A stretch of 49,955 nucleotides of DNA from Candidatus Azotimanducaceae bacterium. GTDB lineage: Bacteria; Pseudomonadota; Gammaproteobacteria; Pseudomonadales; Azotimanducaceae. The stretch lies in assembly GCA_047625245.1 (NCBI GenBank), contig JBLHQQ010000001.1, positions 1-49,955 on the forward strand. Direction: 5' to 3'. This document shows, piece after piece, positions 17,481 through 41,848 of this stretch. Below the pieces are notes generated by a model. That model was not told the DNA's origin. It worked only from the letters and a program-made list of their open reading frames with translations, and made no database searches. Made by a program: the position numbers and the translations under genes. Position 1 is the stretch's first letter; every line of letters starts with the position of its first letter.

Positions 17481-17482
17481 TC

Positions 17483-19545: not shown

Positions 19546-19572
19546 TTAATATCTCCAGAAGGTTTTCCCAAT

Positions 19573-21994: not shown

Positions 21995-22065
21995 TTGGAA
22001 CCTCTAAACCGAGTATAGAACTACACGGCAGGTATATACATTAACGGTAATTAGTCGATGTAAAT

Positions 22066-23451
22066 TCAGCGTCGAATTCGAGCTCGAATGGACGTCAAAG
22101 ACATAAACGGGAGTAGCCCATCGACATGCGCAACATTCAGTTCAGCAGCATCCACACCACTTAACTGGAATAACTCGCGAACAGAGTGAACGTCAATGAA
22201 TTTATCCTTGCGTTTGGCTGAAAGTTTTGTCCTTGCAACGTTGACAAAACTTGACCCAAATATCATACAAACCGCCTTGTAGACCGTTTGGTGCACTGAA
22301 TCACGACCGGCAAAAAGGCCACTTCTAGCCACACTCTTAGTTTCCTCAACTTCCGCGCGTTGTTTTATGACTGAGGCGACCCTTTCACCCGCATCACCAT
22401 CACACAGGTAGAAAAAACCTTCTACATAGCTAGCAACCACACCTTCTTCAACAAGTTGGGCATATTTGACCCCTGGATGGTTAATGGCGTCTATCAAATC
22501 ATCTCGACCCAGAGCCCGGTAACTCACTTTAGAAGGAATCGGAGTATGTTTTGCCATCAAGGCATCGTTCAGGTACTCAATGGATATCGGCGGCACTTTC
22601 ATTATCAACGAATCCACTGCGGTTCCACAATTGAGGTGGACGACACACGCAGCCTGGGAAATAGCATCAAATACATCCCCATCGCCATCAACAATAACAT
22701 TTTCAAATTTTTCAAACGCTGCAGTATAGGGCTTAAGGTCTTCGAATGGGTGTGGCCTTACCACCACCTTTCTTGTCGGCATCGACTCGGCAATAAACCT
22801 TACCTCATCAATAAACTTGGGAAATATCGCCAACAAGTGTTCATACAATTCATCAACATAGCCCCCATCCCAGCCGACAGACTTAAACGCACTCTTCTCG
22901 CTTTCAACACTGGATCCAAATTTAGGGTTGATGGCCGAAAAATTTGCATTAACAAGAATGTGGTTTTCATAGCGAGGCTTTAGCATACCCACCCATTTTC
23001 GGTCACATTGGTCGTAGCGTGGGCAGCCTGTAAGAAACAAATCAGATTTATCTATCTGACTGTATGCGGAAAATGCTTCAAAAGTCTTAGCGCCCCAAAA
23101 GAAGTAACCGGCAACCAAGGCCCCCAAGCCCGTTTCTCCCAAGTGTCTTGCCCAATTCTCAGGTGAATCTATGCCGTCCGTAGAGAGTATCCCACCCTCA
23201 GTATCAAGCACATAAACTGGAACACCAGCAGCTTGGCACCTTTCAAGAAAAGCTCGATTATTCAAACGCACATAATTAACAACCAGTAAATCGACCTTTC
23301 CAAGGAAAGTGTCAACATGCTGAAAATACATGGGTATGAAGTGAACCTCATGCCCCGCTTTGATCAGGTGGGTGGCAAGTATCACTAACCCTTTCAAATC
23401 CCTTTTGGGGTTATCAACTATCAAACCAATTCTTTTCGCCATCGACACCAT
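22066..23451 (-). CDS. GT-B-like putative ulosonic-acid or surface-carbohydrate transferase
   Basis: 461 aa. VVVRPHPFED followed by VVHLNCGTAVDSLIMKVPPI. The start may be the second ATG (MAKRIGLIV). Confidence 0.5.
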   Translation of the reverse strand: MVSMAKRIGLIVDNPKRDLKGLVILATHLIKAGHEVHFIPMYFQHVDTFLGKVDLLVVNYVRLNNRAFLERCQAAGVPVYVLDTEGGILSTDGIDSPENWARHLGETGLGALVAGYFFWGAKTFEAFSAYSQIDKSDLFLTGCPRYDQCDRKWVGMLKPRYENHILVNANFSAINPKFGSSVESEKSAFKSVGWDGGYVDELYEHLLAIFPKFIDEVRFIAESMPTRKVVVRPHPFEDLKPYTAAFEKFENVIVDGDGDVFDAISQAACVVHLNCGTAVDSLIMKVPPISIEYLNDALMAKHTPIPSKVSYRALGRDDLIDAINHPGVKYAQLVEEGVVASYVEGFFYLCDGDAGERVASVIKQRAEVEETKSVARSGLFAGRDSVHQTVYKAVCMIFGSSFVNVARTKLSAKRKDKFIDVHSVRELFQLSGVDAAELNVAHVDGLLPFMSLTSIRARIRR

Positions 23452-23600
23452 CTATACCTGTCCATACATTCAAGTAAAAGTAAGCTATCGATCGGTGACG
23501 GAAGATCGAGCAGAACGACCACCATTCGACACTAGCACTGCCAAGGAACTATTTACGAACATCTAACTTACAAAATCCGACTCTAGCTAACCGGCTTCGG

Positions 23601-24713
23601 TTAACTAGCTTTTAAGGGTTGCTTCAATCGCCATTCCCCATCAACCATCTCCCAGATTTTGTGGTTCCGGAATTTCTCCACGGTATCCCAAAATTCCTCC
23701 TCAGTGACATGGTGAAAGCGGAGAAAGTCCTGGAAGTACTCAGCAGGAAACTCATCACTGAGCTTGCTGACAATTTCTACGGCATCTTTTCTACTAAGTC
23801 GGCCATTCCATATGTCATAGCAACATTGGTCTGTGGAACGCCAGAAGCCGAACTTCAGATACTTGAACCAGATGTTAATCTCACACAACTTCTCATCAAT
23901 ATTGTCGTAGTCAAGAAAATTACCCGCAAGTGGTCCACTTTTCCGACCCGTAAAACCTCTCTGGCTCACAATCTCATAGTTTTTACGCCCATACCATCGA
24001 AGGTAGTGACCTAGATAGATGCTGTTTATACCCGACGCTTCCAATTTCTCGTAAGCTGGGTACCTGTAAAACAGCGTATCTCTTTCGGAGATATCATCGT
24101 CCAACCAATCACTAACGGTCTTTTCCTTGATCAGGTCGTTTTTATCGATCGCCAAGGCGCTCGGCTTACTTTCCTGATTCTGTATACCACCAAATTCAAA
24201 AGCTATATCTTCCCCCCAGACGACCAAAGGCACTTCATAAATCAGGGCGGTATTTATCACGCTGGAAAACATCGCGCAGTGCTCCGCCCAATTTGGCTCT
24301 CCCTGCCGTATGAAACACTTCTTCCTGATAGCCCTGAACACACTGGGCTTAATCGTGATTTTCATATGATCGACATTCAAATCTTTGATCATATTATTAA
24401 GATTTTCGATACCTTCTGTGGTTGGAAGGTGCGCTGTAAGCGTCACGCAAAGTACTTTCAAACCATACTTTTCCGCCAGAATCATTGCCTGGAACCAACT
24501 ATCCTTACCACCGCTAACAGGCACTATGCAGTCATAAAATGGGTGATTAGCCGCCTTCACATCAGCCACAATCTCATCGAGCTGCTTGCCTCTTTCCACC
24601 CAATCAATTTTATCTTTCAGTTCTCGAGCACGACAGGCATTACACATCCCGCGGCTGTCGAGAACAACACCCGGTTTTGTATTTGGCATCACACACGTTG
24701 CACAATATTCCAT
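23601..24713 (-). CDS. N-acetyl sugar amidotransferase (WbuX/PseA/PtmG family, PP-loop ATPase)
   Basis: 370 aa. N-terminal Cys4 CATC..CNAC and intact PP-loop VPVSGGKDS. Confidence 0.85.
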   Translation of the reverse strand: MEYCATCVMPNTKPGVVLDSRGMCNACRARELKDKIDWVERGKQLDEIVADVKAANHPFYDCIVPVSGGKDSWFQAMILAEKYGLKVLCVTLTAHLPTTEGIENLNNMIKDLNVDHMKITIKPSVFRAIRKKCFIRQGEPNWAEHCAMFSSVINTALIYEVPLVVWGEDIAFEFGGIQNQESKPSALAIDKNDLIKEKTVSDWLDDDISERDTLFYRYPAYEKLEASGINSIYLGHYLRWYGRKNYEIVSQRGFTGRKSGPLAGNFLDYDNIDEKLCEINIWFKYLKFGFWRSTDQCCYDIWNGRLSRKDAVEIVSKLSDEFPAEYFQDFLRFHHVTEEEFWDTVEKFRNHKIWEMVDGEWRLKQPLKAS

Positions 24714-24718
24714 TTGTG

Positions 24719-26011
24719 TTAGCCCTCTACCGCTTTATAGTTAACTTCGTCCATATAGGCACGTCCCAGCAAAATATAACCTTCTTCTCGCTCTTCTACC
24801 TCTTTCAGATCAGTGAGCGCGTATTCATTGGCATTGGTACTTTCAAGTTGCACCTCCTCACTGCCAGCGTCATCAATATGCTCCATAACTGAGTCTCTAA
24901 GCATCCAGTCGCCATCTTTTTGCAGCCAGATTTGCGGGTCACGAAATTTATCGACCGTTGCCAAAAAATCCTCTTGGGACATGCCAATCCATTCAAGCAA
25001 AAGTTGGAGGTTTTCAGGAACAACTGATTGATATTGTTCTACTAGCCTGGCCCCTTCGGCACGGGTTATTCGCTTCAATCGTATGTCACGAGAGGCGTGG
25101 TCTGTTACTTTTCCGTAACCATATTTTAGGAATTTCACATAATCGTGGACGCTGGCGTTGTTCCAACAAGCAATAGACTCGAAAGTGTTGTACGTACGTT
25201 CCTGAGTCAAAGTTTCGTAAGAGAACTTTTCGATCATCTTTTCAGTCTGGATTTTAGAATCCCAGAAAATGTAGTTGCCCAGATACAGTCCTCGAACTCG
25301 AGATTTTTCTAGTTGTTCATCTGAAGGGTAGGTAAATGCCTGTAAATCCTTTGATGATATAGCAGCGCTCATGCCTATTAGAGATGCAGCATCAACACCA
25401 CGCATTGCATGTTCCTTCCTGACCTTCTTGGTCATCTCTACCTGATCATGATGAGAAAACATTCCTACCTGGTCAAGCCAACCGTTAACTCCCCATATAA
25501 TCAGTGGAATGTCCAGCTTCGTAGCCACCTGAACTGGGAAAGTGTTAATACCTGCAATCACATGCCAATAGATATCACCAAATTCTCGTAAAGTAACTCG
25601 GGTGATTTCCTTAACAGTGTCAGGTCCCACGGTCGACATCATATGATCACAGTCAAGTTCTGTGATTAGGCGGGCGAGATTGCGAACGCCGACTTTAGTG
25701 TTGAACTGGGAGTTGTAAGTTACGAGTAACGGGTTCATCCCAAATTTGTTTTTTATGGTGTCGACCACAAAAAAATCATCACCAATACCCGACACGGGAA
25801 TGATACAGTCATATGAAGTACCAGGCCTATGTTTATACTGGGCCAGAATATTTTCGAATTCTTGCTCTTTCTTGCTCCAGTCTATTTCATATTTTTCTTC
25901 GTGCACCAGACATCCACTACAAACACCCCTTGAGTCAAAGGTAATGTTTAATGGATGGTTTGCTGGATATAAACAGCGCGTACAATATCTCATAACGTTT
26001 CCATTACCCAT
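24719..26011 (-). CDS. N-acetyl sugar amidotransferase paralog with degenerate PP-loop
   Basis: 430 aa. Same Cys4 N-terminus (CTRC..CSGC) and colinear with the neighbouring paralog, but the PP-loop reads IPVSGIGDD. The start may be the second ATG (25993). Confidence 0.75.
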   Translation of the reverse strand: MGNGNVMRYCTRCLYPANHPLNITFDSRGVCSGCLVHEEKYEIDWSKKEQEFENILAQYKHRPGTSYDCIIPVSGIGDDFFVVDTIKNKFGMNPLLVTYNSQFNTKVGVRNLARLITELDCDHMMSTVGPDTVKEITRVTLREFGDIYWHVIAGINTFPVQVATKLDIPLIIWGVNGWLDQVGMFSHHDQVEMTKKVRKEHAMRGVDAASLIGMSAAISSKDLQAFTYPSDEQLEKSRVRGLYLGNYIFWDSKIQTEKMIEKFSYETLTQERTYNTFESIACWNNASVHDYVKFLKYGYGKVTDHASRDIRLKRITRAEGARLVEQYQSVVPENLQLLLEWIGMSQEDFLATVDKFRDPQIWLQKDGDWMLRDSVMEHIDDAGSEEVQLESTNANEYALTDLKEVEEREEGYILLGRAYMDEVNYKAVEG

Positions 26012-26016
26012 TCCAA

Positions 26017-26835
26017 TTAAAATGGTCGACCCATCAGGTCGAACTCAAAATCCTTATATTTGACATTCGAACTCAATCGAACATCTACTCCCGAACTTAC
26101 CAAATGCGCTTTAGCCGCAATAGTACTGTGTTCGGAATGTTGGAAAATATTAGCGGCTGAGACTGCTTCACACCCACCCTCAATTACTCCGGGTGCTAAG
26201 TGACGGAAGGAGCCCACTCCTCCGCAAGCAATAACAGGTATTTTCAACCGCGAACTGATGGAATGCAGTAGCTCAAGATCGTATCCCCTTCGGCTTCCGT
26301 CCCTATCCACAGAGTTAACAAATATCTCGCCAGCCCCCAAACTTTCCATCTCGACAGCAAGTGCTGCGGGACTTTGCTGCAACGCAGACTTGGCCAAGTA
26401 ATCATAGACCCGGTAGCCATCTGGCGTTTCTATCACATCTATCGAGACTGTAATGCACTGGCTCCCATAGGCTGCCGACGCCTCGGCGATAAAATTGGGA
26501 TCTCGTCTCGCTATTGAGTTGACACAAACTTTGTCCGCTCCCACTTTCAGTAGATCACGAATGTGTTGCTGCGTGGATATGCCACCGCCAATAGTCAATG
26601 GTACAAAACATTCAGTTGCCGCCCAACTAACCAGATCCAGGTTAAAAGACCGGCCTTCTCGGCTGGCATCGATGTCTATAACAATTATTTCGTCAACATC
26701 CCAATTGACAAAGAATTCAATCGCAGTCTTTATGTCCCCGATGGGGAGATACCTATTAAAGCCAAAACTCTGGACGACAAGTTCTCCCTTGGTGACGATA
26801 CAAGGTACGAGCCTTTTCTTAAGCATCCAATCCAT
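26017..26835 (-). CDS. hisF: HisF-like cyclase subunit (WbuZ/HisF2-type acetamidino-modification protein)
   Basis: 272 aa. KRLVPCI, DEIIVIDIDAS, PLTIGGGI and GADKVCVNS motifs of the IGP-synthase cyclase fold. Glycan-locus context. Confidence 0.9.
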   Translation of the reverse strand: MDWMLKKRLVPCIVTKGELVVQSFGFNRYLPIGDIKTAIEFFVNWDVDEIIVIDIDASREGRSFNLDLVSWAATECFVPLTIGGGISTQQHIRDLLKVGADKVCVNSIARRDPNFIAEASAAYGSQCITVSIDVIETPDGYRVYDYLAKSALQQSPAALAVEMESLGAGEIFVNSVDRDGSRRGYDLELLHSISSRLKIPVIACGGVGSFRHLAPGVIEGGCEAVSAANIFQHSEHSTIAAKAHLVSSGVDVRLSSNVKYKDFEFDLMGRPF

Positions 26836-27463
26836 CTCCTACCATATCCAAAAAATTCCTCAGCACGATCATGCCATTCTGTTGGCTTTTTTCCGGATGA
26901 CACTGCATTCCATAGATATTGCCTGATTGCACAGAAGCTGTAACCTCAATGCCATGGTCCACCGTCGCTGTAATATATCTCTCATCACAAACTGCGTGAT
27001 AACTGTGCACAAAGTAAAAATTTTTATCCTCGCCCAGGTTGTCCAATAACCTGCTCGGCACTCTAAATTGCAAGTTATTCCAACCCACGTGTGGGACACG
27101 ATAAGGTGATTTCACATCAATATATCTAACCGGACCAGGAATCCAGCCTAAACCTTTAGTCACCTGCCCCTCTTCAGAGCTATCAAAAAACAATTGCATA
27201 CCCAGACAAATACCCAGTATCGGCTTTTTTTCGTCAAAGGCTTGTTTCGACAAAATTGGAACGAGACCTCGCGACTCGAGATTATACATTGCATCACGGA
27301 ACGCACCGACACCTGGAATGACGATACAATCGGATCTTTCAATATCCGCCGGATCATTAGTTACCCTCACATCATAGTTACCGATATGTTTTATTGCATT
27401 TTCTATAGAACGAAGATTACCCATTCCATAGTCGACAATCGCTATCACAAAACCATCTTTCAT
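26819..27463 (-). CDS. hisH: HisH-like glutamine amidotransferase subunit (WbuY-type)
   Basis: 214 aa. IAIVDYGMGNLRS, GICLGMQ (catalytic Cys) and CHPEKS (His/Glu). Confidence 0.9.
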   Translation of the reverse strand: MKDGFVIAIVDYGMGNLRSIENAIKHIGNYDVRVTNDPADIERSDCIVIPGVGAFRDAMYNLESRGLVPILSKQAFDEKKPILGICLGMQLFFDSSEEGQVTKGLGWIPGPVRYIDVKSPYRVPHVGWNNLQFRVPSRLLDNLGEDKNFYFVHSYHAVCDERYITATVDHGIEVTASVQSGNIYGMQCHPEKSQQNGMIVLRNFLDMVGDGLDA

Positions 27464-27505
27464 TTAGCCTGTTTCCTACTTAAATCGATTGGTCAAAATC
27501 AGGGA

Positions 27506-28276
27506 CTAGACCGTAAATCCATCATCAACCACAATATTCTGCCCACAAACGTATTGTGACTGGTCAGAACATAAGAACAATACACTTCCAACAATATCCC
27601 CGGGATCTAACATCCCTTTACTTTGGCACTGGGCTCGATAGTTTTCGAGAAAGCTTTCGGGTTGGCGATCTAGAATCCCACCTGGACTTATACAGTTGAC
27701 CCGAAATTTCGACCCCTTTGTATATGCGGTTGCATAACTGGTGAGATGCAACAACGCGGATTTAATTGCTGCATACTCAACCGGTGTTGTCATCTGGGTT
27801 CCCGCATAAATGGAAAATTTAGGAGGAATAACCCCGTAAATGGACGAAAACTGAACGAGAGAAAACTTGCTGTCCTGGTCCAAGGCAAATTTCGCGGCTT
27901 GCTGCAGAACCATAAAATAGCCACCCAGATGCAACTGAAGGTTTTCCCCAAAATCCTCATAAGTCACATCAAAAAAGTGTCGGCCATAGTTTGGATTCCG
28001 GGGGTAAGAAGTATTAATCGCGCCATCAACCCGCCCCACGCGAGCTTTAACTGACAGGAAAAGAGCGGCAAGTAGTCCAGCATCAGCGATATCTACATAC
28101 TCAACGAACACCTGAGTGTTCCCGATGTACTTTTCCGCAAGACGATCTAACGCAACCTGACTATTATCAGCAGCACAAACTAGTGCGCCGGCATCCAAGA
28201 GATTTTGAAGCAATATCTGGCCAATCAGGCCACCGGCCCCAAACAATACGAAACACTTACCTTCCAAATCATTCAC
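27506..28276 (-). CDS. ptmA: PtmA-like SDR oxidoreductase
   Basis: 256 aa. FVLFGAGGLIGQ and YAAIKSAL motifs. Last gene of a ptmE-ptmF-ptmB-ptmA-like synteny block. Confidence 0.7.
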   Translation of the reverse strand: MNDLEGKCFVLFGAGGLIGQILLQNLLDAGALVCAADNSQVALDRLAEKYIGNTQVFVEYVDIADAGLLAALFLSVKARVGRVDGAINTSYPRNPNYGRHFFDVTYEDFGENLQLHLGGYFMVLQQAAKFALDQDSKFSLVQFSSIYGVIPPKFSIYAGTQMTTPVEYAAIKSALLHLTSYATAYTKGSKFRVNCISPGGILDRQPESFLENYRAQCQSKGMLDPGDIVGSVLFLCSDQSQYVCGQNIVVDDGFTV

Positions 28277-28949
28277 TTTTGATTAACGCCTCTGCGACTT
28301 TGAAATCATACAAATCATCAATATCTACGGCTCTTTCTTTCGGAATGATTACAGATCGAACCCTGCCTGCAAATACCCCCTTATTCGCCAGAACAAATGC
28401 AGGTCTTGCTACATAGGCAACAGTAGTCATATCGAAGACTTCGGGTGCATCCTGCCGGCGATGAAACTGACCGGCATCGTTAACGAGATGGCACAGACCC
28501 TGGTCGTCTAACTTCACCATATTGAACCAAGGACTTCGGGCCGCCGGCGTAACAGTAATAACCATATCTGTTTCACTATCCAAGACAGACAAGCAATCTC
28601 GAACATCTTCAATTGACCTCAACGGGCTCGTAGCCGGCAAGCTTATAAACCGATCAAATTCACCATAGGTTGACTCAACATGCCGCACCGCATGCTGCCA
28701 TGCAAGCCACTCAGAAGCAGTATCCGAAGCCAATTCTTCTGGACGATGAATGACCTCTGCACCGTGTTCAACAGCAACTTTGCTTATATAAGGGCAATCT
28801 GTTGAGACAAAAACCTTTGAAATAGAGCCTTCATTTCTTGCACAGTGAATTGAGTGAGCGACTAATGGTTTGCCTCCCAATATTTTGATATTTTTGCCGG
28901 GCAACCCCTTCGAGCCACCTCGTGCGAAGACAAATGCGTAGTTAATCAT
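28269..28949 (-). CDS. legF: acylneuraminate-family cytidylyltransferase (CMP-legionaminic acid synthetase type)
   Basis: Start taken at the internal ATG (MINYAFVFARGGSKGLPGKNIK), which overlaps the upstream stop as ATGATTAA. The longer ORF to 28997 would overlap the upstream gene by 56 nt. Confidence 0.85.
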   Translation of the reverse strand: MINYAFVFARGGSKGLPGKNIKILGGKPLVAHSIHCARNEGSISKVFVSTDCPYISKVAVEHGAEVIHRPEELASDTASEWLAWQHAVRHVESTYGEFDRFISLPATSPLRSIEDVRDCLSVLDSETDMVITVTPAARSPWFNMVKLDDQGLCHLVNDAGQFHRRQDAPEVFDMTTVAYVARPAFVLANKGVFAGRVRSVIIPKERAVDIDDLYDFKVAEALIKSE

Positions 28950-29967
28950 GGGCTGGAAACTCGATAGAAACGCGTTCACCGGACTGGCTTGAGTCACGAC
29001 AGGCCGCTATCAACGCCATGACGCTACGTGCTTGCGGTAACCCAACCGTTGCCTTTTGTTTACCTTCAATGAACCTGACAAAGTTATGAAGTTCATCGAT
29101 GTACATGTCATTGCGGTCATAGCCGTTACCTAGGTTTAGGAACTCCGGTTCTTTATCTGCAGTCATTACTGAAATAGTGTTTGTAAGTAGATCCCACTCC
29201 AGCGTGCCCTCCTCGCCAATGACTTTGCAATTGCGACTGACTACACGCTGCAAGAAGTCCAGATGGACATAGGCAACCAAGCCAGATTGAGAGGTGAAGA
29301 CCGCATCAATCTGATCTTCAACTTCTATGTCCAGAATGTCCGATCTACCCTCAATGCAGTAGACTGTATCAAAGCTTCCAAACAGCCAAAGCAAGTAGTC
29401 GAGCTCATGGCTCAGCTCCAGTAAAGCACCACCACCCAGCGTTTTTTTTGCAGAAACACTCTGTTTGTAGTCATCCACCACCCGCCAATCCGGGAGAAAC
29501 TGCCCGACCTGTAACATCACTGTAGTCAGTCTACCGATGCACTTCGTTTCAAGCAGTGTTTGCATTCGGATCGCAGCAGGTGCGTTACGAAGGTTGTAGC
29601 CAACATCAATCAGGTGTTTGTACTTCTGCAACTCTGAAGCAGCTTGGCGCGCACTTCCCGTCAACGTGTCACTCAACGGCTTCTCTATCAGTGTAGGAAT
29701 ATCCGCTCTCAAAAACTTGAGTGCATGCTCAAGATGAAGTGAAGCTGGCGATGCAATTATCGCAAATTTAGGCTTAGCAACAACCGCGTCTTCAAGACTG
29801 TCGAATACCAGATCGACACCGAGATCACTTGCGATAATCGTTCGTCCACTAGCAGAGACACAAGCCACAATCCAGGAAGCATCAATCTTGCGCAGGTTTT
29901 GTATATGACGACGGGCAATACTACCTGTACCAACGACAATGCACTGTATGTTTGGTGCCTTATTCAT
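28942..29967 (-). CDS. ptmF: Gfo/Idh/MocA-family oxidoreductase (PtmF-like)
   Basis: 341 aa. IQCIVVGTGSIARRH and IEKPLS motifs. Position matches C. jejuni Cj1330. Confidence 0.75.
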   Translation of the reverse strand: MNKAPNIQCIVVGTGSIARRHIQNLRKIDASWIVACVSASGRTIIASDLGVDLVFDSLEDAVVAKPKFAIIASPASLHLEHALKFLRADIPTLIEKPLSDTLTGSARQAASELQKYKHLIDVGYNLRNAPAAIRMQTLLETKCIGRLTTVMLQVGQFLPDWRVVDDYKQSVSAKKTLGGGALLELSHELDYLLWLFGSFDTVYCIEGRSDILDIEVEDQIDAVFTSQSGLVAYVHLDFLQRVVSRNCKVIGEEGTLEWDLLTNTISVMTADKEPEFLNLGNGYDRNDMYIDELHNFVRFIEGKQKATVGLPQARSVMALIAACRDSSQSGERVSIEFPAHD

Positions 29968-31019
29968 AGATTGATAATATCTTCCTGCGCTTGCTCAAAA
30001 TCTTCAGCACGACCGATATCCAGCCAATATTCATGCAGGGGAAAAGAACTGACAGCCACCTTCTTATTGATTTGCTGCAAAAGGAATTCTGGCATGTCTA
30101 TACGCTGCTGATAGGGCACATCGGTGAGCATCTCTGGAGAAAGCATATAAATGCCAGCATTGATGAAATATTTGTAGTTAGGCTTTTCTAAAATCCCCCT
30201 CACTTCGTGTCCGGAGCTTTCGACTACGCCGTAGGGGACGGCATGACTATATTCACGTACACACATAGTTGCAGCACAACTATTTGACTCGTGGAAATTC
30301 AGCAGATTCTGAAAGTTCAAGGTTGTGAGAAGATCGCCATTCATCATAAACATAGGTTTGTCTATTTCGTCTCGAGGCAAAAGCCCCAGAGCTCCCGCAG
30401 TACCTAAGGGAGTGGACTCATGTACATAGGAAATATCAATACCCAATTGGCTGCCATTGCCGAAGTACTCACGAATCATCTCAGACTTGTAATGGGTAGA
30501 TATGTAGAATCGATGAAAACCAGCACTGACAAAGTTATTGATAATCAGTTCCAGTAACGGCTTGCCCCCAACTTTCAGCATTGGCTTAGGACAGTTTTTC
30601 GTCAAAGATTTTAACCGTGAACCAAATCCACCAGCCATTAGAAAGACAGGATTATCCAGTCGCTTCAGGGTCAATAAATCCCGAACGGTTTCCAGTCCAA
30701 CGATAATATTATTCTGCGTTACAGGAATGGAATAGATATCATTCTCTTCCATAATTAGTCGAATGACTGACCTCTCGGTCGCTGGCCCGACAGTTTTGGG
30801 GTTCTTGTTCATCACTAATGACACTGGCATGGAGAGAGACACTTCTCTCAACAGGCCACGGCGAATATCCCCATCTGTGACGACACCAAGCAGACCACCT
30901 TCTGCATCCGCCACTAGCGCAATTCTTAGGGAACCTGACTCAATGGCTTTCATCGCGTCGCTTAAAGTAGCATCCGGTGAAATTAGAACTTCTCTCCAAT
31001 CCATCATATTATTCACCAA
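29964..31019 (-). CDS. ptmE: CBS-pair + sugar-1-phosphate nucleotidyltransferase (PtmE-like)
   Basis: 351 aa. N-terminal CBS pair (GVVTDGDIRRGLL), then FLMAGGFGSRLKSLT..PKPML. The start may be at 31007 or 31004. Confidence 0.85.
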   Translation of the reverse strand: MVNNMMDWREVLISPDATLSDAMKAIESGSLRIALVADAEGGLLGVVTDGDIRRGLLREVSLSMPVSLVMNKNPKTVGPATERSVIRLIMEENDIYSIPVTQNNIIVGLETVRDLLTLKRLDNPVFLMAGGFGSRLKSLTKNCPKPMLKVGGKPLLELIINNFVSAGFHRFYISTHYKSEMIREYFGNGSQLGIDISYVHESTPLGTAGALGLLPRDEIDKPMFMMNGDLLTTLNFQNLLNFHESNSCAATMCVREYSHAVPYGVVESSGHEVRGILEKPNYKYFINAGIYMLSPEMLTDVPYQQRIDMPEFLLQQINKKVAVSSFPLHEYWLDIGRAEDFEQAQEDIINL

Positions 31020-31938
31020 CCGGGTTTAAACGAGTACCAACTCTGAATCTGGGAACGTAACTCGGTCCTACCGCACCATTTGGGTCGATCCTCGCAACCT
31101 GAGTGATTAACAACGTGGAGCTTCCAGTCTTAACCACTACACCATTATCTCTGACCCCAACAACCTCACCGGTTGTTGCTATATAGTCAGGCGCGGCGGG
31201 TATCAACTCCGCTGCCAAAATGGCATATTCCAGCTGATTCCTGAATGTCCGAGCGCCTGGGCCGGGATGTGCTACTCCGCGGACAAAATTGAAACATCGA
31301 AGTGTCGAAGCTGACCAGTCAAGTATCTCATCACCATTAAGTCGGCGACCAAAATAGGCCCCAACGGGGTGTATAGTAGCCTGAACAAGGCGCTTCGTGG
31401 TGTTATCCCTGATATCCCTGATGGCCTGCAGGAGAACCAATCCACATTGATCTACAGCTTTCACCAACAAAGTACCGTAATCATCGTGTTCTACTATTTC
31501 ATACATTGTTTGCCGAAGAATATCGCCGGTATCTACGCCTTCATCGACATAGTGTACGGTGATACCAAAATGGCTCTCACCATTGATCAACACCCAATTC
31601 AGCGGATTTCGACCACGATAAAATGGTAACGCCCCAGCATGGCAATTGATAAAGCCAAAGGGTGCAAGGTCAATAATCTCTTTTCTTAGAATTTGGTTGA
31701 AAGACATAGACACCAGAAGGTCCGCGCCAAGCGACTTGATGGTCTGCAGAAACTCGGCGGAATTTACGTTCTCATGCACCAAAAATGGTACACCTAGCTC
31801 TTCGGCCCACTTTCGAAGTACAGGATCCTGAGTGTCATACCTAGGAGTAATGAAGACGATCTCAATATCCGCTTCATCACAAATCAACTTAATCGCCTTG
31901 TGCGACCAGGGTCCGTCGGCGAAATACCCTATTTTCAT
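31009..31938 (-). CDS. N10-formyl-tetrahydrofolate-dependent formyltransferase (Fmt/ArnA-N-terminal-like)
   Basis: 309 aa. INCHAGALPFYRGRNPLNW and VDEGVDTGD catalytic motifs plus an Fmt-like C-terminal domain. ATGA overlap with neuB. Confidence 0.85.
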   Translation of the reverse strand: MKIGYFADGPWSHKAIKLICDEADIEIVFITPRYDTQDPVLRKWAEELGVPFLVHENVNSAEFLQTIKSLGADLLVSMSFNQILRKEIIDLAPFGFINCHAGALPFYRGRNPLNWVLINGESHFGITVHYVDEGVDTGDILRQTMYEIVEHDDYGTLLVKAVDQCGLVLLQAIRDIRDNTTKRLVQATIHPVGAYFGRRLNGDEILDWSASTLRCFNFVRGVAHPGPGARTFRNQLEYAILAAELIPAAPDYIATTGEVVGVRDNGVVVKTGSSTLLITQVARIDPNGAVGPSYVPRFRVGTRLNPVGE

Positions 31939-33011
31939 ACAATAACCTCATCAGGACGATAGTCTCTTAGGGCAACAGAACCGACAAAATTCCAGTAATT
32001 CATCGGACTCTGACCAGAACCCGGCCTCTTAATAGTGAGCATATCGGCGGTGATGACCTCACCCTTTTTAATTGCATTTCTAGCCACCAGACTTTTTCTG
32101 GCTATCACAATATTTTTAACCTCAGAAGGCCTAGGTCCTTTCAGGCCATCACCGATAGCGCGTTCAATATTTCGGACAGAACTCACCAACAATGACAGTT
32201 CTTGAGGCTCCAGAGACGCCTTGTGATCCGGCCCCTCCATTGTACGGTCCAGAGTGAAGTGCTTTTCGATGATCCTGGCCCCGCGGGCAACTGCTGCCAC
32301 AGAGACTTCTATGCCAGTGCTGTGGTCTGAGTAACCTACCGGAAGACCAAATGCGGACCTCATGCTGTCCATAGCAGCCAGGTTAATGTCTTCAAAGGGC
32401 GCTGGGTATTCAGTCGTACAGTGCAACAAAGATACATATTCTTGCAGCATCCTTTGTCCTTCAGCAGAGAAATAGGCCTCGCGAAATTGATTTACACCCG
32501 GTTCCACACCTTTCTGGTTGACCAGCCCAAAAGCAAGGACACTCAAGCAATTTTCGATATCAGCCAAAGATGACATCCCGGTAGATACAATCATCTTCCG
32601 TTTGGTACGAGCAAAATCTAATAACAGCGGTCCATTGGTCACTTCACCTGAAGGCACTTTAAGCAGGGATAAATTGAGATCATTAACCAGAAAGTCCAAA
32701 CTCTCGCTATCGAAAGGTGTTGAAAGAAAACTGATACCCTTGGACTCACAATATTTGATTAGAACTCTATGGGAATTATGATCGAGCTCCAGTCGCCTCA
32801 GCATATCAATTTGTGGTTCTGCCCGTGCAGTATTCACAATTTGATAGTCCGCTTGCCTCGCGTCAGAGGTTACCAGGCTTGATGCCTTGAACGTCTGGAA
32901 TTTGATAACGTCAGCGCCGGCTTGCACCGCGGCATCTACCAGTGCTATCGCGATATCTAGGCTACCATTGTGGTTTACTCCGGCTTCAGCTATTACAGTC
33001 GTATGTAACAT
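31935..33011 (-). CDS. neuB/legI: N-acylneuraminate-family synthase (LegI-type, PEP-condensing)
   Basis: Start taken at MLHTTVIAEAGVNHNGS, 1 nt after the neuC stop. NeuB domain plus C-terminal SAF domain (..ITADMLTIKRPG). Confidence 0.9.
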   Translation of the reverse strand: MLHTTVIAEAGVNHNGSLDIAIALVDAAVQAGADVIKFQTFKASSLVTSDARQADYQIVNTARAEPQIDMLRRLELDHNSHRVLIKYCESKGISFLSTPFDSESLDFLVNDLNLSLLKVPSGEVTNGPLLLDFARTKRKMIVSTGMSSLADIENCLSVLAFGLVNQKGVEPGVNQFREAYFSAEGQRMLQEYVSLLHCTTEYPAPFEDINLAAMDSMRSAFGLPVGYSDHSTGIEVSVAAVARGARIIEKHFTLDRTMEGPDHKASLEPQELSLLVSSVRNIERAIGDGLKGPRPSEVKNIVIARKSLVARNAIKKGEVITADMLTIKRPGSGQSPMNYWNFVGSVALRDYRPDEVIV

Positions 33012-33012
33012 A

Positions 33013-34179
33013 CTATTGGGTCCTGACTTCTGGTTGATCAAAAAAAGACTTAATGGGATCTAGCACCATAGTCTCGAGTACTTTTCTAATCTGGCCGCTG
33101 GCATCGCCACGTCCATAGGGATTGGCGTATACCAGCTCATCATTGCGGAACGTTTCAGACAACCCAAGGCGGATAGAACGCACAATCGCATCTCTCTCGA
33201 CATCACAATGTATTACAGATGCCGCCGCAGCTCTGCCCTTTTGGCGGTTACCTACATTTATTGTTGGTACATGAAAGGATGGCGCCTCAATTATGCCACT
33301 GGAGGAGTTTCCAATGACCAGCCGGCAGTGTTTCATCGCACTCAAATACCTGACCTGGCCCAATGACGGTACACCAACCACACGTCCACCCGATGTCGCT
33401 ACATAATCATCAATTAACGCAATAATCTGCCGCCCACCTTCATCCGCATTAGGATAGGTAAAGACAATCTGATGGTCGCTAAAGCAATCAAGTGCTGTCA
33501 GTAGATGTCCAAAATCATCGATAGCACCACGCTTCGACATTGTTTCTGGATGATAAGTTATGAGGAAGAATGGACGGTCCAGCCTAAAACTAATTGAAGC
33601 TGACAATTCTTCCGATGACATGAGGGCAGTCTTGCTTACATGGTCCAACCCTGGAGCTCCGACATTCTTTACGCGATCAGGTTTTTCACCCATCTGTATT
33701 ACACGTCTTCGGTGCTCTTCAGTGGTGGTGCAATGATATGTACTCATTTTGGTAATAGAGTGTCTGATGGCATCGTCGTATGCTCCCTCGGTCAACTCAC
33801 CACCGTGGATGTGCAGAATGGGTATTTTGAGAATAAGTGCCGTTTGCGCTGCAGCCAATGCTTCAAATCTATCGCCGAGAATCACTAAAACATCAGGTGA
33901 TAGACGGCTAAAAGATTCGGCTAAACTAATAGTGGCTAATCCCATCGATTTCAAAACTCCGACGGGTGTGTCTGATGAGAGCAGAATTTCGCACTTTTCA
34001 TCAATGGCAAAACCATCGCTCTCAATTTGTTGATAAGTCAGGCCAAATTCAGGAGACAGATGAGAACCGGTCGCAACTATCTGCAAAGCCAGTGAATCAC
34101 TAGCCTGAATTTCCTTCAGCAGCCAGAACAGAAGACCATATTCAGCTCGAGTGCCAGTAAAAATCAGTATTCTTCGCAT
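33013..34179 (-). CDS. neuC/legG: hydrolysing NDP-HexNAc 2-epimerase (NeuC/LegG-type)
   Basis: 388 aa. MRRILIFTGTRAEYGLL and HIHGGE motifs of hydrolysing UDP-GlcNAc 2-epimerases. Confidence 0.9.
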   Translation of the reverse strand: MRRILIFTGTRAEYGLLFWLLKEIQASDSLALQIVATGSHLSPEFGLTYQQIESDGFAIDEKCEILLSSDTPVGVLKSMGLATISLAESFSRLSPDVLVILGDRFEALAAAQTALILKIPILHIHGGELTEGAYDDAIRHSITKMSTYHCTTTEEHRRRVIQMGEKPDRVKNVGAPGLDHVSKTALMSSEELSASISFRLDRPFFLITYHPETMSKRGAIDDFGHLLTALDCFSDHQIVFTYPNADEGGRQIIALIDDYVATSGGRVVGVPSLGQVRYLSAMKHCRLVIGNSSSGIIEAPSFHVPTINVGNRQKGRAAAASVIHCDVERDAIVRSIRLGLSETFRNDELVYANPYGRGDASGQIRKVLETMVLDPIKSFFDQPEVRTQ

Positions 34180-34183
34180 TCAG

Positions 34184-35329
34184 CTAAACTTCGACTGCGG
34201 TGCTGGGCAAATTAACAATTCGCTGTGCCAGCCATTCTGAATTATGAAGTTCACCTCGGAATGCATTGGCATACATCGGTAATGTGTGCATCAGGTTCCA
34301 AACAGGTCTTGTCATTACACCACTGTCGTTAGTTTCTTTCAGGAGGTTATTCCTAGCAGCAAAGTCCTTGCAGATAACAGCATTGAGCCAATAATTAGAG
34401 CGGCAATGCTCTGGTTCATCAACAAATGTATATTCTGAATCTACAAAAAATGCTCTATATGATGCCGCCAAATTGCGCTTTTGCGTAATTATCTCTGGCA
34501 ATCGCTCCAACTGCGCGCAGCCCAAGGCCGAATTCAAGTTGGGTAACCGATAGTTAAAGCCAGCCTCTTCATGATAGAACTCATAAGGATGCGGTTTCTT
34601 TGCGGTGGTAGTTATGTGCTTTGCCCTGACACCATCATCAACATCGGCACACAGAAGCATACCACCGCCTCCCGTTGTGATGATTTTATTACCATTGAAA
34701 CTCAAGGCTCCGTATCGAGACAAGGTGCCTGTGTGTTGCCCTTTATAATAGGACCCCAGGCTTTCAGCAGCATCCTCAATAAGTTCTATATGCCATTTAT
34801 CGCAAACCTGCTGCAACTCATCCATTTCAACCGGGTGGCCAAATGTATGCATAGGTAGCACCGCGGCGATTTTACATTTTGATACCTTATGTCGACAGAT
34901 ACCGTTTCCATCGATCTCGGCATTTGAGGCCAAATATTCATTAAGCGCAACCGGGCACAATCCAAGCGTTTTTCGGGATACATCAACAAATATAGGACTG
35001 ACCCCCATGTGAAACATAACATTACACGCCGCCACAAAGGTCATGGCCTGCGTGATCACATGATCGCCGACCTGTATTCCCGCAAGGTAAAGAGCTGCGT
35101 GTATAGCCGCCGTGCCATTAACTGTGGCAATTGCCTTTTTTGCACCCGTGAATTTTTCTATATTTTCCTCGAAACGGTTTACGTATTTACCAACGCTGGA
35201 AACGTAGGTGCTATCAATCGCCTCAATTAAATACTCTTTCTCCGCGCCTTTAAAAACCGGTTCGCACAGCGCGATAAACTCATCCGTGTGGTAGATCTGA
35301 CGAATAAATTTCACTAGTTTTTCTGTCAT
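34184..35329 (-). CDS. legC: DegT/DnrJ/EryC1-class PLP aminotransferase, LegC type
   Basis: 381 aa. LSFNGNKIITTGGGGML signature and DAAESLGS motif. Confidence 0.9.
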   Translation of the reverse strand: MTEKLVKFIRQIYHTDEFIALCEPVFKGAEKEYLIEAIDSTYVSSVGKYVNRFEENIEKFTGAKKAIATVNGTAAIHAALYLAGIQVGDHVITQAMTFVAACNVMFHMGVSPIFVDVSRKTLGLCPVALNEYLASNAEIDGNGICRHKVSKCKIAAVLPMHTFGHPVEMDELQQVCDKWHIELIEDAAESLGSYYKGQHTGTLSRYGALSFNGNKIITTGGGGMLLCADVDDGVRAKHITTTAKKPHPYEFYHEEAGFNYRLPNLNSALGCAQLERLPEIITQKRNLAASYRAFFVDSEYTFVDEPEHCRSNYWLNAVICKDFAARNNLLKETNDSGVMTRPVWNLMHTLPMYANAFRGELHNSEWLAQRIVNLPSTAVEV

Positions 35330-35458
35330 AATTCGCCACGCCCTGCCTGCTTCAATATGAACCTAGAGCTATCTAAAATTTCCCACCCCAAAAAGGTAAA
35401 CGAAACGACATCAGTCATTGGTCACTGAGGTGCCTCGTCATCCTTAAAAAATCATTTA

Positions 35459-36301
35459 CTACCAGACCGAACGACCACCATCCATAACGATATTCTGGCC
35501 ATTCATATAAGCAGATGCGTCAGAGCAGAGAAACTGGACTATTGAATGATACTCATCAACATGCGCCATACGTTGCATAGGGATTAGCGAGGTAAGTTTA
35601 TCGACGAAATCCTGACCCTGATTGTTTTCTACTCCACCCGGGGACAATGCGTTACACCTAACATTTTGCTCGACCCAATAGGTGGACAGGTAGCGAGTCA
35701 GCCCAACAAGCCCAGCCTTGATGACTGAGTAGGTAACAGGTTTTACGGGTTGCATGTCAGCAGGTATACCCTCTTTTTGATACAGTCTTTGATCAGGTGA
35801 AATAACAGAAAGATCAGAGGCAATATTCAAAATGACGCCACCACGGCCGCTTGACGCCATAACAGCACCAAAGACCTGACTACAAAGAAAAGCCCCGGTT
35901 AATCCTACAGAAATTTGCATTTCCCATTGCTCCAATGAGAAATTTTCAAGCCGCGAGGACTCTACCATTGACGAACTTGCATCGACTTTCGGGTCAATCG
36001 CTGCGTTGTTGACAAGTATATCAACTACTAAACCGGCATCCTGCAAACTTTGCTGTACACCTCGGATGGAGGACAGCGAGGCGACATTCATCTCTTGGAT
36101 TTGAATGTTTTCTGGATTGAATTCCGATTCCAGCTGCTTTTTTGCAGCCAATAGCCGAGTAGAGTCAATATCCGTTAAAACAACTGCAGCGTCCAAGTGC
36201 AGCAAGGCTTTAGCGTGCTCCATACCTAATAGACCCGCTGCCCCTGTAATCAGAGCGGTTTTACCTTCGAGGCTGAATTTCTGCAAACTGTCATGTTTCA
36301 T
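35459..36301 (-). CDS. PtmA-like SDR oxidoreductase (second copy)
   Basis: 280 aa. ALITGAAGLLGMEHA and YSVIKAGL motifs. Same subfamily pattern as 27506-28276. Confidence 0.7.
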   Translation of the reverse strand: MKHDSLQKFSLEGKTALITGAAGLLGMEHAKALLHLDAAVVLTDIDSTRLLAAKKQLESEFNPENIQIQEMNVASLSSIRGVQQSLQDAGLVVDILVNNAAIDPKVDASSSMVESSRLENFSLEQWEMQISVGLTGAFLCSQVFGAVMASSGRGGVILNIASDLSVISPDQRLYQKEGIPADMQPVKPVTYSVIKAGLVGLTRYLSTYWVEQNVRCNALSPGGVENNQGQDFVDKLTSLIPMQRMAHVDEYHSIVQFLCSDASAYMNGQNIVMDGGRSVW

Positions 36302-36314
36302 AGTGTCATCTCAA

Positions 36315-37079
36315 TTAAGCACGGACTTGTCCGCCATCTACGGTCAAAATACTACCGGTTATAAAATTCGACAGGGGTGAGGCTAAAAATATGGCAGCTC
36401 TAGCTATTTGATCTGGGGATCCCAGCGAGGAGAGTGCCACTTCCTTTCCCAGCATCGTTTCGACGGCGGACCTATTTTCCGCCAGTTTTTTCTCCCAGAC
36501 AGATCCATCAAAGAGCATGTTACCTGGTGCGATACCGCAGATTCGAACCCCTCTTTTACCAAGCGGCCTGGCAATACCTTTGATATAGGCATTTAAAGCG
36601 GCTTTCGCGACCGAATAGGTTACTGGAGCTCCGGGAATGACTTCGTTACCACAGATAGATGAAATGCACAGTATGCAACCTTGATGCTTCTGCAGTTCTG
36701 GCACGGCATGCTCGACAGTGTTAGTTGTGCTCCACAAATTGACGCTGAAAACCCTCTGCCATTCGCCAAAATCTTCTTCTCCAGGAGGTACAGAACGGCC
36801 AGAGCCGACGTTACAAACGACAATATCGAGACCGCCCAATTGCCTAACAGCCTCTGCAATGACATATTTGGCACCCTGAACTGTAGAAACATCGCCAACA
36901 ACCCCAACACTACCCGGTATTGATAGAATCGCTGCCTGCACCCGTGCGGACTCTCTGCCGTTTACAGCAACTGAGCAGCCTTCACTAGCAAAGTGTTGTG
37001 CAATGGATTTACCAATACCGCCGGATGAACCCGTCACTAAGACATTTTTGCCTTGCAATTCAAGCAGCATGCTGTTCAA
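36315..37079 (-). CDS. classical SDR oxidoreductase
   Basis: 254 aa. VLVTGSSGGIGKSIA and YSVAKAAL motifs. Confidence 0.85.
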   Translation of the reverse strand: MNSMLLELQGKNVLVTGSSGGIGKSIAQHFASEGCSVAVNGRESARVQAAILSIPGSVGVVGDVSTVQGAKYVIAEAVRQLGGLDIVVCNVGSGRSVPPGEEDFGEWQRVFSVNLWSTTNTVEHAVPELQKHQGCILCISSICGNEVIPGAPVTYSVAKAALNAYIKGIARPLGKRGVRICGIAPGNMLFDGSVWEKKLAENRSAVETMLGKEVALSSLGSPDQIARAAIFLASPLSNFITGSILTVDGGQVRA

Positions 37080-37899
37080 GCCAACGCTCTACCATCTGCA
37101 GGTAGCCCTTCAATACAGCCTGATGATTCTCATCAGTCGCCCTGGCAGTCTGCAGGATATAATTCCCCTTGTAACCCGACCTCGCAAGTAAGCGAAATAC
37201 TAAATCGAATAAAGCTGCTCCGCTTCCAAGTGGCACAGTTGTTCCTCCAAGAATACGATCTTTAACGTGTACATTAATAATACGCGAACCATAGCAGGCA
37301 AACTCCTCATTCGGATCAAATCCCAAGGCCGCACTGTTACCTATATCGTAATTAACACCAAAAGATTCTGCGTCAAGCCTACCGATGAACCGAGCAAGGT
37401 CTTCAGCCTTAAAATCACTCTCGAAGGCTATTCGCACCTTGCTGCGTTGAAAATAACTGACTTGTTCGCTCAAGAAATTTACCAGATGATCTTCTTGTTC
37501 ACGTGTATCAAGCCTTCCAGCATCAACCAGCGGTACAACGATGAAGCCTATTTTTAATTTGGCACAGGCATCAACAATTGCGACAAAATCCAGTTTCAAT
37601 CGGGAAGCCTGCTCGACCGTTGCAGCCTTCCAAAACGGCGCCTGCATAAAACAATCACCGGTCAGTGATGGGATACTGACAGCGTGTTGCTTTACTAATG
37701 CCTCAATACTCGCCCGACCTGGGTGAGTCATAATGGGGTTTTGATAAAGGTCAGCTTGGTCGAGTGTCCACTCCATGGCCCCTATACCAATTGCCGCCGC
37801 CGACGCAAATTCGTTCTGCCAGTTGGCTGCCGGAAACGCTTGGATTTTTCCGTCAACTAGGGCCGATAGACGACCCTGCATAAACCCTACTAAGCTCAT
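37060..37899 (-). CDS. xylose-isomerase-like TIM-barrel protein, UlaE/SgbU-like ketose-phosphate 3-epimerase type
   Basis: 279 aa. FESDF, NYDIGNSAALG, VHVKD and VPLGSGAALFDLVFRLLARSGYKGNYILQ align with L-xylulose/L-ribulose-5-P 3-epimerase motifs. Confidence 0.7.
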   Translation of the reverse strand: MSLVGFMQGRLSALVDGKIQAFPAANWQNEFASAAAIGIGAMEWTLDQADLYQNPIMTHPGRASIEALVKQHAVSIPSLTGDCFMQAPFWKAATVEQASRLKLDFVAIVDACAKLKIGFIVVPLVDAGRLDTREQEDHLVNFLSEQVSYFQRSKVRIAFESDFKAEDLARFIGRLDAESFGVNYDIGNSAALGFDPNEEFACYGSRIINVHVKDRILGGTTVPLGSGAALFDLVFRLLARSGYKGNYILQTARATDENHQAVLKGYLQMVERWLEQHAA

Positions 37900-39335: not shown

Positions 39336-39337
39336 TA

Positions 39338-41826: not shown

Positions 41827-41848
41827 ATTCACTTCACCTAAGTTCAAT

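Follow-up and report, generated by a model that had tools for sequence, protein, structure and literature searches.

A formyltransferase in the N-acyltransferase slot of a legionaminic-acid-type gene cluster from a Candidatus Azotimanducaceae bacterium

In many bacteria, nonulosonic acids cap surface polysaccharides and flagella; whether phages, antibodies, and lectins recognize them depends on their N-acyl groups. A 49,955-nucleotide (nt) stretch of DNA from a Candidatus Azotimanducaceae bacterium (contig JBLHQQ010000001.1; "the window" means this whole stretch) holds, at positions 27506-35329, an eight-gene module of the legionaminic acid (Leg) type in which a formyltransferase gene (fmt) lies where related clusters carry a gene for a PglD/LegH N-acetyltransferase. 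Which amino group does this enzyme acylate, and what sugar does the cluster make? With a probability of roughly 65%, we think that the cluster makes a cytidine monophosphate (CMP)-activated 7-N-formyl, probably 5-acetimidoyl, Leg-type sugar (CMP-Leg5Am7Fo type), with Fmt acting on a nucleoside diphosphate (NDP)-linked 4-amino-4,6-dideoxy derivative of N-acetylglucosamine (GlcNAc).

The window is the entire largest contig of a metagenome-assembled genome (MAG; 2.7 Mb in 325 contigs, completeness 78%), whose RecA is 89-97% identical to proteins from uncultured marine Pseudomonadales and Gammaproteobacteria, TARA Oceans sequences included. The genes of interest are all on the minus strand, inside a polysaccharide cluster of about 45 kb that starts with a Wzz homolog (45538-46566) and has a small phosphoglycosyltransferase at its end.

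The formyltransferase and the slot it occupies

The module runs from the aminotransferase gene legC to a ptmA-like gene (Table 1). The original prediction, made from the letters of the sequence, had assigned the same families to the same eight minus-strand open reading frames (ORFs), and had described a Leg-type pathway with no 4,6-dehydratase nearby and an fmt gene translationally coupled on both sides; our searches agree with it on these points. The aminotransferase scores above the cut-off of the LegC family, the epimerase is of the LegG type, and the tail is PtmE/F/B/A-like. The best solved relative of the epimerase is the GDP/UDP-N,N'-diacetylbacillosamine 2-epimerase (hydrolyzing) of A. 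baumannii (5zlr; 373 bits, E = 1e-110), human GNE being a weaker match (E = 1e-51); this relationship would fix the pathway as legionaminic, rather than N-acetylneuraminic (Neu5Ac) or pseudaminic. When models of the pseudaminic acid pathway were tested, genes for PseB, PseG, and PseH were absent, and the PseC and PseI models scored under their cut-offs. The PtmA model NF050062 (FlagModPtmA) matches the last gene of the module over its full length at 200 bits, under its cut-off of 350. LegC is the sole DegT-type aminotransferase in the assembly, and positions 27506-35329 hold no dehydratase and no hexapeptide or GNAT acyltransferase. The genes are tightly packed, with neighbors overlapping by up to 8 nt or standing no more than 4 nt apart; the ATG of fmt overlaps the stop codon of neuB (GTATGA), and the likely ATG of ptmE lies 1 nt past the TAA of fmt. 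The listed ORF starts of several genes are probably too long, with likely ATGs at 33011 for neuB, 31007 for ptmE, and 28949 for legF.

The window Fmt is a two-domain ArnA/Fmt-like protein of 309 amino acids (aa). Its closest solved relative is the formyltransferase domain of ArnA (E = 8e-34), which formylates a UDP-sugar at its 4-amino group. The GDP-perosamine 4-N-formyltransferase WbkC matches as well (E = 4e-19), and PseJ (PDB 6ci2) aligns only to residues 71-157 (E = 2e-10); overall, the protein is nearer to the ArnA domain than to true methionyl-tRNA formyltransferases, WbkC, or PseJ. Residues N98, H100, and D136 align with the catalytic Asn-His-Asp of ArnA and are invariant in 29 homologs from the loci that we fetched and in 35 database homologs. 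The AlphaFold model is confident (predicted local distance difference test, pLDDT, 93; predicted template modeling score, pTM, 0.87), and Foldseek aligns the predicted fold with ArnA at template modeling (TM) scores of 0.76-0.86 and with Fmt structures at 0.82-0.88. None of the NCBIfam models for Fmt, ArnA, and PRK06988 reaches its cut-off with this protein: TIGR00460, the methionyl-tRNA formyltransferase model, gives 122.8 bits where 201.5 are required, and NF005998 gives 138 bits where 777 are required, the fused decarboxylase domain being absent. The canonical housekeeping Fmt of the same genome lies on another contig (C56), and PurU on a third (C308). In a tree of Fmt proteins, the window clade is split at 100/99 both from the housekeeping enzyme, which forms a very long separate branch, and from a deacetylase-linked family, fmt2, described below. 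The intact catalytic residues, the confident ArnA-like fold, and the separate housekeeping Fmt together point to an additional, active-looking formyltransferase dedicated to the cluster, its activity being predicted from sequence and model. Because the gene keeps its position inside nonulosonic acid clusters in several phyla, we infer that the enzyme formylates an NDP-amino sugar.

That this gene stands in the N-acyltransferase slot was the central claim of the original prediction, and it stood up when we mapped all module genes in 20 PtmE-centered loci fetched from a sample of the window's class, together with the Fmt loci. Nine of the 20 have the order dehydratase-legC-neuC-neuB-[PglD-like]-ptmE-legF (L079, L080, L081, L083, L085, L089, L090, L092, and L093), and four more have the PglD-like gene elsewhere in the module. 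The same order with fmt in the slot, dehydratase-legC-neuC-neuB-[fmt]-ptmE, is found in the window and in L017-L019, L022-L025, L028, L039, and L078. The last of these, from genome G079, reads capD-legC-neuC-neuB-fmt-ptmE-ptmF-legF-ptmA-hisH-hisF-wbuX-wbuX, a 13-gene match to window positions 23601-35329 plus 2467-3654 at protein identities of 39-73%. None of the class loci that we fetched carries both fmt and PglD.

If the swap reflected specialization of the synthase for a different substrate, the NeuB proteins of Fmt-type clusters might form a clade of their own. We rejected this idea: on the NeuB tree, Fmt-type and PglD-type clusters interleave with 12 label changes, no better than shuffled labels, and mixed sister pairs occur (L079/L017 at 97/95; L097/L036 at 99/85). 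The simplest reading is a single pathway backbone that takes either of two interchangeable N-acylation cassettes, exchanged many times.

Some Leg clusters also carry fmt2, a second and distant formyltransferase family that is 27-30% identical to the window Fmt and always lies beside a PIG-L-type deacetylase gene (L018 7382-8937, L022 7379-8934, L036 13037-14583, and L084 14401-15929). In L018, L022, and L036, this pair is present in addition to a window-type Fmt. The pair probably serves to exchange acetyl for formyl on the other amino group; the co-occurrence makes sense if Fmt serves N4 and the extra pair re-acylates N2.

A formyltransferase in the slot would mean little if a PglD/LegH enzyme were encoded elsewhere, an outcome that the original prediction had named as one that could undo it. 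In the 78%-complete assembly of the window's genome, the PglD-family model TIGR03570 has no full-length match, and a custom hidden Markov model (HMM) built from the slot PglD proteins, which recognized 18 loci at 160-278 bits, reaches at most 51 bits, with partial matches only. Two candidates, LpxA (C48) and a WbbJ-like protein (C7), were rejected, the other matches being partial hexapeptide repeats; a hexapeptide protein in the window itself (13955-14443) was likewise rejected as LegH, since it matches only generic repeats in its C-terminal part (37 bits). Searched throughout with TIGR03570, five further genomes with Fmt modules likewise lack a full-length PglD-family gene (three culture-collection strains, a cyanobacterium, and an Oscillospiraceae genome): Vibrio hepatarius DSM 19134 has no match at E = 1e-15 or better, and Psychromonas aquimarina, Colwellia hornerae, the cyanobacterium ESFC-1, and Oscillospiraceae PP1C4 have partial matches below 78 bits. 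As controls, three genomes of the PglD type give 188-210 bits at the slot where the gene is expected. Judging from the gene content of these five genomes, the Fmt-type pathway evidently can run without a PglD-type enzyme.

The swap of acyltransferases is widespread and not peculiar to the window's genome, which lowers its novelty. Thousands of relatives of the window Fmt are found in databases. The best 120, at 54-64% identity, come from Vibrio, Aeromonas, Shewanella, Pseudoalteromonas, Photorhabdus, Colwellia, Endozoicomonas, and many metagenomes, and are mostly annotated "methionyl-tRNA formyltransferase". When a single genome per species was scanned, 31 loci with window-type Fmt emerged, from Proteobacteria, Verrucomicrobiota, Bacteroidota, Cyanobacteria, Firmicutes, Melainabacteria, and Bdellovibrionota, and all 28 full-length members recovered from the fetched loci lie among or beside nonulosonic acid genes. 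Of 400 genomes sampled evenly from the window's class, 30 have a PtmE-type Leg cluster and two have window-type Fmt, the window's own being included in both counts. Two Fmt loci, from a Flavobacteriales MAG (L023 10001-10921) and a SAR86 single-cell genome (L024 10001-10921), have almost identical Leg-Fmt modules, with end branches of 0.012 and 0.03 for Fmt and of 0.012 and 0.025 for NeuB; this points to either a very recent transfer between phyla or a mis-binned contig. Lachnospiraceae, Clostridium, and rumen loci differ from the gammaproteobacterial ones in that the gene of a PglD-like acetyltransferase immediately adjoins that of a window-family Fmt (L026 9327-10894, L027 10001-11617, L032 1132-2700, and L042 4593-6134).

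A displaced dehydratase and the proposed pathway

The module lacks the enzyme for the first step, and the original prediction had pointed to a CapD-like gene (2467-3654) as the only candidate in the window; the gene lies at the 3' end of the same cluster, about 24 kb downstream. This proposal has gained weight. In five loci (L017, L018, L019, L078, and L079), the module opens with an ortholog at 68-69% identity, placed immediately upstream of legC and, in L018 and L079, after wzz; a homolog at 50% identity lies near legC in L043. The protein is also the only Polysacc_synt_2 protein in the assembly. Because it belongs to the family of 3pvz, because its orthologs sit upstream of legC, and because no other such protein is present in the assembly, the CapD-like protein appears to be the module's missing dehydratase, its displaced first enzyme. 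A search for LegB across the genome, which the original prediction had also proposed, gave at most 128 bits with TIGR04180 against a cut-off of 475; the matches are generic short-chain dehydrogenases/reductases (SDRs), namely RmlB on C218, GalE on C48, and an epimerase on C7, and were rejected. We also rejected as LegB a 310-aa SDR at 6196-7128, which lies beside Ugd, scores 108 bits against the same cut-off, and shares no more than 25-31% identity with the true LegB-type genes that lie upstream of legC elsewhere.

Downstream of the module lie genes for an amidine-forming system and a putative glycosyltransferase (Table 1). HisH/HisF/WbuX is known amidine-forming machinery that acts on N-acetyl groups, so one N-acetyl group would be retained in the product until this step, presumably the N5-acetyl that comes from GlcNAc. 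The window has two tandem WbuX paralogs (23601-26011), one of 370 aa with the motif SGGKDS and one of 430 aa with SGIGDD and a 60-aa acidic C-terminal tail, and the pair is kept in L023, L024, and L078 at 68-73% identity. The paralogs may form a catalytic/non-catalytic heteromer. We judged it unlikely that they make two different amidines, acetimidoyl and formimidoyl, as the one degenerate PP-loop suggests a heteromer with a single activity. The TIGR04396 protein at 22066-23451 is the likely transferase.

Combining positions 22066-35329 with the displaced gene at 2467-3654 gives what would be a complete Leg-type route in which an N10-formyl-tetrahydrofolate-dependent sugar N-formyltransferase replaces the PglD/LegH N-acetyltransferase. 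The CapD-like enzyme would dehydrate NDP-GlcNAc, carried on UDP or GDP, to a 4-keto-6-deoxy sugar, and LegC would aminate C4. Fmt would then formylate the new 4-amino group of NDP-4-amino-4,6-dideoxy-GlcNAc, before the LegG-type epimerase inverts C2 and removes the nucleotide. The NeuB-type synthase would condense the hexose with phosphoenolpyruvate, so that N4 of the hexose becomes N7 of the nine-carbon acid, placing the predicted formyl group at N7 and not at N5. The LegF-type enzyme would add CMP, HisH/HisF/WbuX would turn the remaining N5-acetyl into acetimidoyl, and the TIGR04396 protein would probably transfer the sugar into the polysaccharide. The roles of the PtmE-, PtmF-, and PtmA-like proteins are presumptive. 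In A. baumannii, SDR/oxidoreductase genes beside Leg modules set the epimer (PMC5595891), and by analogy the PtmF- and PtmA-like genes of the window could do likewise; the stereochemistry would presumably be that of Leg (D-glycero-D-galacto) rather than of an epimer.

Table 1. Genes of the proposed pathway and of its surroundings, with their positions in the window and the evidence for each assignment.
Feature	Position	Strand	Evidence
legC: pyridoxal phosphate-dependent NDP-4-keto-6-deoxy-N-acetylhexosamine 4-aminotransferase	34184..35329	-	PF01041 (DegT); TIGR04181 LegC family 510 bits, cut-off 420
legG/neuC: hydrolyzing NDP-sugar 2-epimerase	33013..34179	-	TIGR03568 NeuC 467 bits
legI/neuB: nonulosonic acid synthase	31935..33041	-	PF03102 + SAF; TIGR03569 479 bits
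fmt: predicted sugar N-formyltransferase (ArnA/Fmt fold)	31009..31938	-	PF00551 (Formyl_trans_N) + PF02911 (Formyl_trans_C)
ptmE-like CBS-nucleotidyltransferase	29964..31019	-	PF00571 + PF00483 (NTP_transferase); conserved neighbor of fmt or pglD in related loci
ptmF-like Gfo/Idh/MocA oxidoreductase	28942..29967	-	PF01408, PF22725, PF02894; syntenic in L023, L024, L039, L078, L079
legF/ptmB: CMP-nonulosonate synthetase	28269..28997	-	PF02348 (CTP_transf_3); TIGR03584 122 bits, below cut-off
ptmA-like SDR	27506..28276	-	NF006619 (PRK09186) 306 bits, cut-off 255
HisH-like glutaminase subunit, WbuY type	26819..27463	-	TIGR01855 226 bits; syntenic in L023, L024, L078
HisF-like WbuZ subunit	26017..26835	-	TIGR03572 WbuZ 267 bits, just under 299.7 cut-off
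WbuX-family N-acetyl sugar amidotransferase paralog, degenerate PP-loop SGIGDD	24719..26011	-	TIGR03573 376 bits
WbuX-family N-acetyl sugar amidotransferase, intact PP-loop SGGKDS	23601..24713	-	TIGR03573 410 bits
Probable nonulosonic-acid glycosyltransferase	22066..23451	-	TIGR04396 "surface carbohydrate biosynthesis protein" 277 bits; weak BFO_1060 glycosyltransferase match
CapD-like soluble NDP-GlcNAc 4,6-dehydratase, 395 aa	2467..3654	-	PF02719 (Polysacc_synt_2); 3pvz "UDP-N-acetylglucosamine 4,6-dehydratase" 613 bits
Bac_transf small phosphoglycosyltransferase, PglC/WbaP-like, 314 aa	1782..2726 as listed		Overlaps CapD-like gene by 260 nt

The neighbor of the displaced dehydratase gene deserves comment. 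In the small phosphoglycosyltransferase, which is equidistant from WbaP and PglC, the catalytic domain begins at about residue 87, and the likely start is the ATG at 2462, 4 nt past the capD stop codon, giving a PglC-sized protein of 226 aa. A doubtful idea is that NDP-2-acetamido-4-formamido-2,4,6-trideoxyglucose (4-N-formyl bacillosamine) is used twice, as the precursor of the Leg5Am7Fo-type sugar and as the priming sugar for this enzyme. Such double use would explain why the dehydratase gene moved from the Leg module to the 3' end of the cluster, and it fits the single CapD-type dehydratase and the single DegT aminotransferase of the assembly.

Two further modules share the cluster. Between wzz and legC lies a second ulosonic acid cassette (35459-43920). 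It encodes a fusion of NeuB with a xylose-isomerase-like TIM barrel, a SIS isomerase, and a cytidylyltransferase, along with three SDRs, a CBS-GHMP kinase, and a nucleotidyltransferase, and it fills the position after wzz where relatives carry the CapD-like dehydratase. Its SDR directly upstream of legC (35459-36301) has homologs at 33-35% identity in L085, L093, and L097, where they sit at the PtmA position beside the CMP-synthetase gene of Leg clusters; given this position, it appears to be a PtmA-like paralog that belongs to the neighboring cassette. The third, CMP-type module (14448-21994) encodes Capsule_synth, Gfo/Idh/MocA, a 2-hydroxyacid dehydrogenase, a cytidylyltransferase-cupin fusion, an SDR, and DUF4862. 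Scanning 21900-36400 for promoters and terminators revealed no clear internal one on the minus strand: promoter-like sites are rarer than in shuffled sequences, and terminator-like sites, at about twice the shuffled mean, are yet short, weak stems on both strands.

Alternative roles for the formyltransferase

Several observations weigh against formylation of N4 by the window Fmt. Some concern the choice of nitrogen. The gene adjoins ptmE in almost every locus, which could mean that the enzyme formylates the 2-amino group of the PtmE product, NDP-glucosamine (NDP-GlcN). A PglD-like gene is also present in five of the 31 Fmt loci, though only in these (L026, L027, L032, L040, and L042, from Firmicutes or rumen), and there the two enzymes cannot both serve N4. 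Moreover, the one formylated legionaminic acid for which documentation is good, that of Halorubrum sp. PV6, carries its formyl group on N5, not N7, and the cluster has a putative formyltransferase with a NeuD-like gene (PMC6137143). All three would fit an enzyme that acts on NDP-GlcN to give an N5-formyl sugar, with one enzyme per amino group and N7 acylated by another enzyme or left free. We nevertheless consider this unlikely. It would leave the 4-amino group without an acyltransferase in the window and in the five genomes that have no full-length PglD-family gene, and if fmt and PglD served different nitrogens, it would be odd that they share one slot and are mutually exclusive in the class loci. 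The nearest characterized relatives, ArnA and WbkC, formylate 4-amino groups. WbuX needs an N-acetyl group, and the cluster would supply none, although a housekeeping or other-family acetyltransferase was not searched for. The clusters that add fmt2 and a PIG-L deacetylase would be redundant. Finally, the Fmt proteins that co-occur with PglD all fall within one subclade (97/99), and the window protein lies outside it.

The remaining points against N4 formylation concern what the searches could see. The assembly is only 78% complete, so that an acetyltransferase may be unassembled; the negative result covers PglD-type genes, non-PglD families such as GNAT not having been searched genome-wide; and genome G079, which carries the syntenic module on C252, has a near-cut-off PglD-like gene on another contig (C225:21289-21867, 140.6 bits), as well as another nonulosonic acid locus with PtmE (C201). 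In C. jejuni, legH is remote from the leg genes (SugarBase preprint), and we found no biochemical or structural-chemistry study of the window Fmt clade. An ordinary N-acetyltransferase in the missing 22%, or of another family, might then acetylate N4 to yield Leg5Ac7Ac or Leg5Am7Ac, and Fmt would modify some other sugar, such as a priming amino sugar; the small phosphoglycosyltransferase next to the CapD-like gene and the unrelated hexapeptide acyltransferase at 13955-14443 in the same cluster would suit such a scheme. We regard it as distinctly improbable, in that the hexapeptide protein matches generic repeats only, the five other Fmt-module genomes have no full-length PglD-family gene, and fmt, in several phyla, is an integral part of the Leg module and translationally coupled within it. 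With LegC as the only DegT aminotransferase, there is also no other amino sugar pathway visible in the assembly for Fmt to serve. It is very improbable indeed that fmt encodes a second methionyl-tRNA formyltransferase or an inactive relic irrelevant to the sugar pathway. The source annotations of its homologs and the Foldseek matches to Fmt structures would suggest a tRNA enzyme, but the score far under the TIGR00460 cut-off, the canonical Fmt on its long separate branch, and the placement of all 28 full-length members in or beside nonulosonic acid genes speak against one, and the invariant catalytic residues speak against a relic.

Relation to known nonulosonic acid pathways

As far as we found, 7-N-formyl groups are known in the pseudaminic series, through PseJ, and in the Leg series there are only the archaeal 5-N-formyl sugar and unassigned formylated CMP-sugars. 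A literature search for Leg5Ac7Fo, Leg5Am7Fo, and 7-formamido legionaminic acid returned no report, and the only marine 7-formamido nonulosonic acid that we found reported is a pseudaminic isomer from Pseudoalteromonas (PMC3210612). The formylated Leg-type sugar predicted here has probably not been described before. The window offers a clean example of a two-domain, ArnA-like family that occurs in several phyla, has been swapped repeatedly with LegH/PglD, and is routinely mislabeled as a tRNA enzyme; one characterized member would correct thousands of annotations. If the prediction is true, Leg5Ac7Fo or Leg5Am7Fo would become a predictable new sugar for genome-based glycan prediction, with chemoenzymatic access. 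Cultured carriers exist in Vibrio hepatarius DSM 19134, Psychromonas aquimarina ATCC BAA-1526, and Colwellia hornerae ACAM 607, whose Fmt orthologs share 58-63% identity with the window Fmt.

The known CMP-Leg pathways, C. jejuni PtmE/PtmF/PtmA-LegB/C/H/G/I/F and A. baumannii lga, share with the window the LegC-family aminotransferase, the LegG-type epimerase of the 5zlr family, the NeuB-type synthase, and the CMP-synthetase, and their PtmE-PtmF-LegF-PtmA-like tail has the same order. In contrast to them, the window has no LegH/PglD but a formyltransferase in the slot, and its dehydratase is a soluble CapD/3pvz-type protein, not a LegB-type short SDR, encoded some 24 kb downstream.

Among formyltransferases, PseJ of Anoxybacillus follows the same logic: an N10-formyl-tetrahydrofolate-dependent enzyme replaces the N-acetyltransferase at the 4-amino nucleotide-sugar step; the 4-amino sugar is thus formylated, and the pseudaminic acid pathway yields Pse5Ac7Fo (PDB 6ci2; PMC11040635). 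It differs in serving the pseudaminic (L-glycero-L-manno) rather than the legionaminic type, and in being a single-domain protein of about 200 aa on a different branch of the superfamily from the two-domain window Fmt. The N-terminal domain of ArnA, the UDP-4-amino-4-deoxy-L-arabinose formyltransferase, is closest in sequence and fold, with the same Asn-His-Asp, the same two-subdomain architecture, and a 4-amino NDP-sugar as its substrate, but it is fused to a decarboxylase domain that the window Fmt lacks, and its genomic context and presumed substrate are different.

Formylated sugars are also known from the clusters of Halorubrum sp. PV6 and of the anammox bacterium Kuenenia stuttgartiensis, the latter with a deacetylase, a formyltransferase, and unassigned formylated CMP-sugars (bioRxiv 10.64898/2026.04.20.719630). 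Both are Leg-type clusters with a putative formyltransferase, neither assayed, as is the window's. Compared by gene content, however, they retain an acetyltransferase (NeuD or LegH) or add a deacetylase, whereas the window has neither and carries Fmt in the slot itself.

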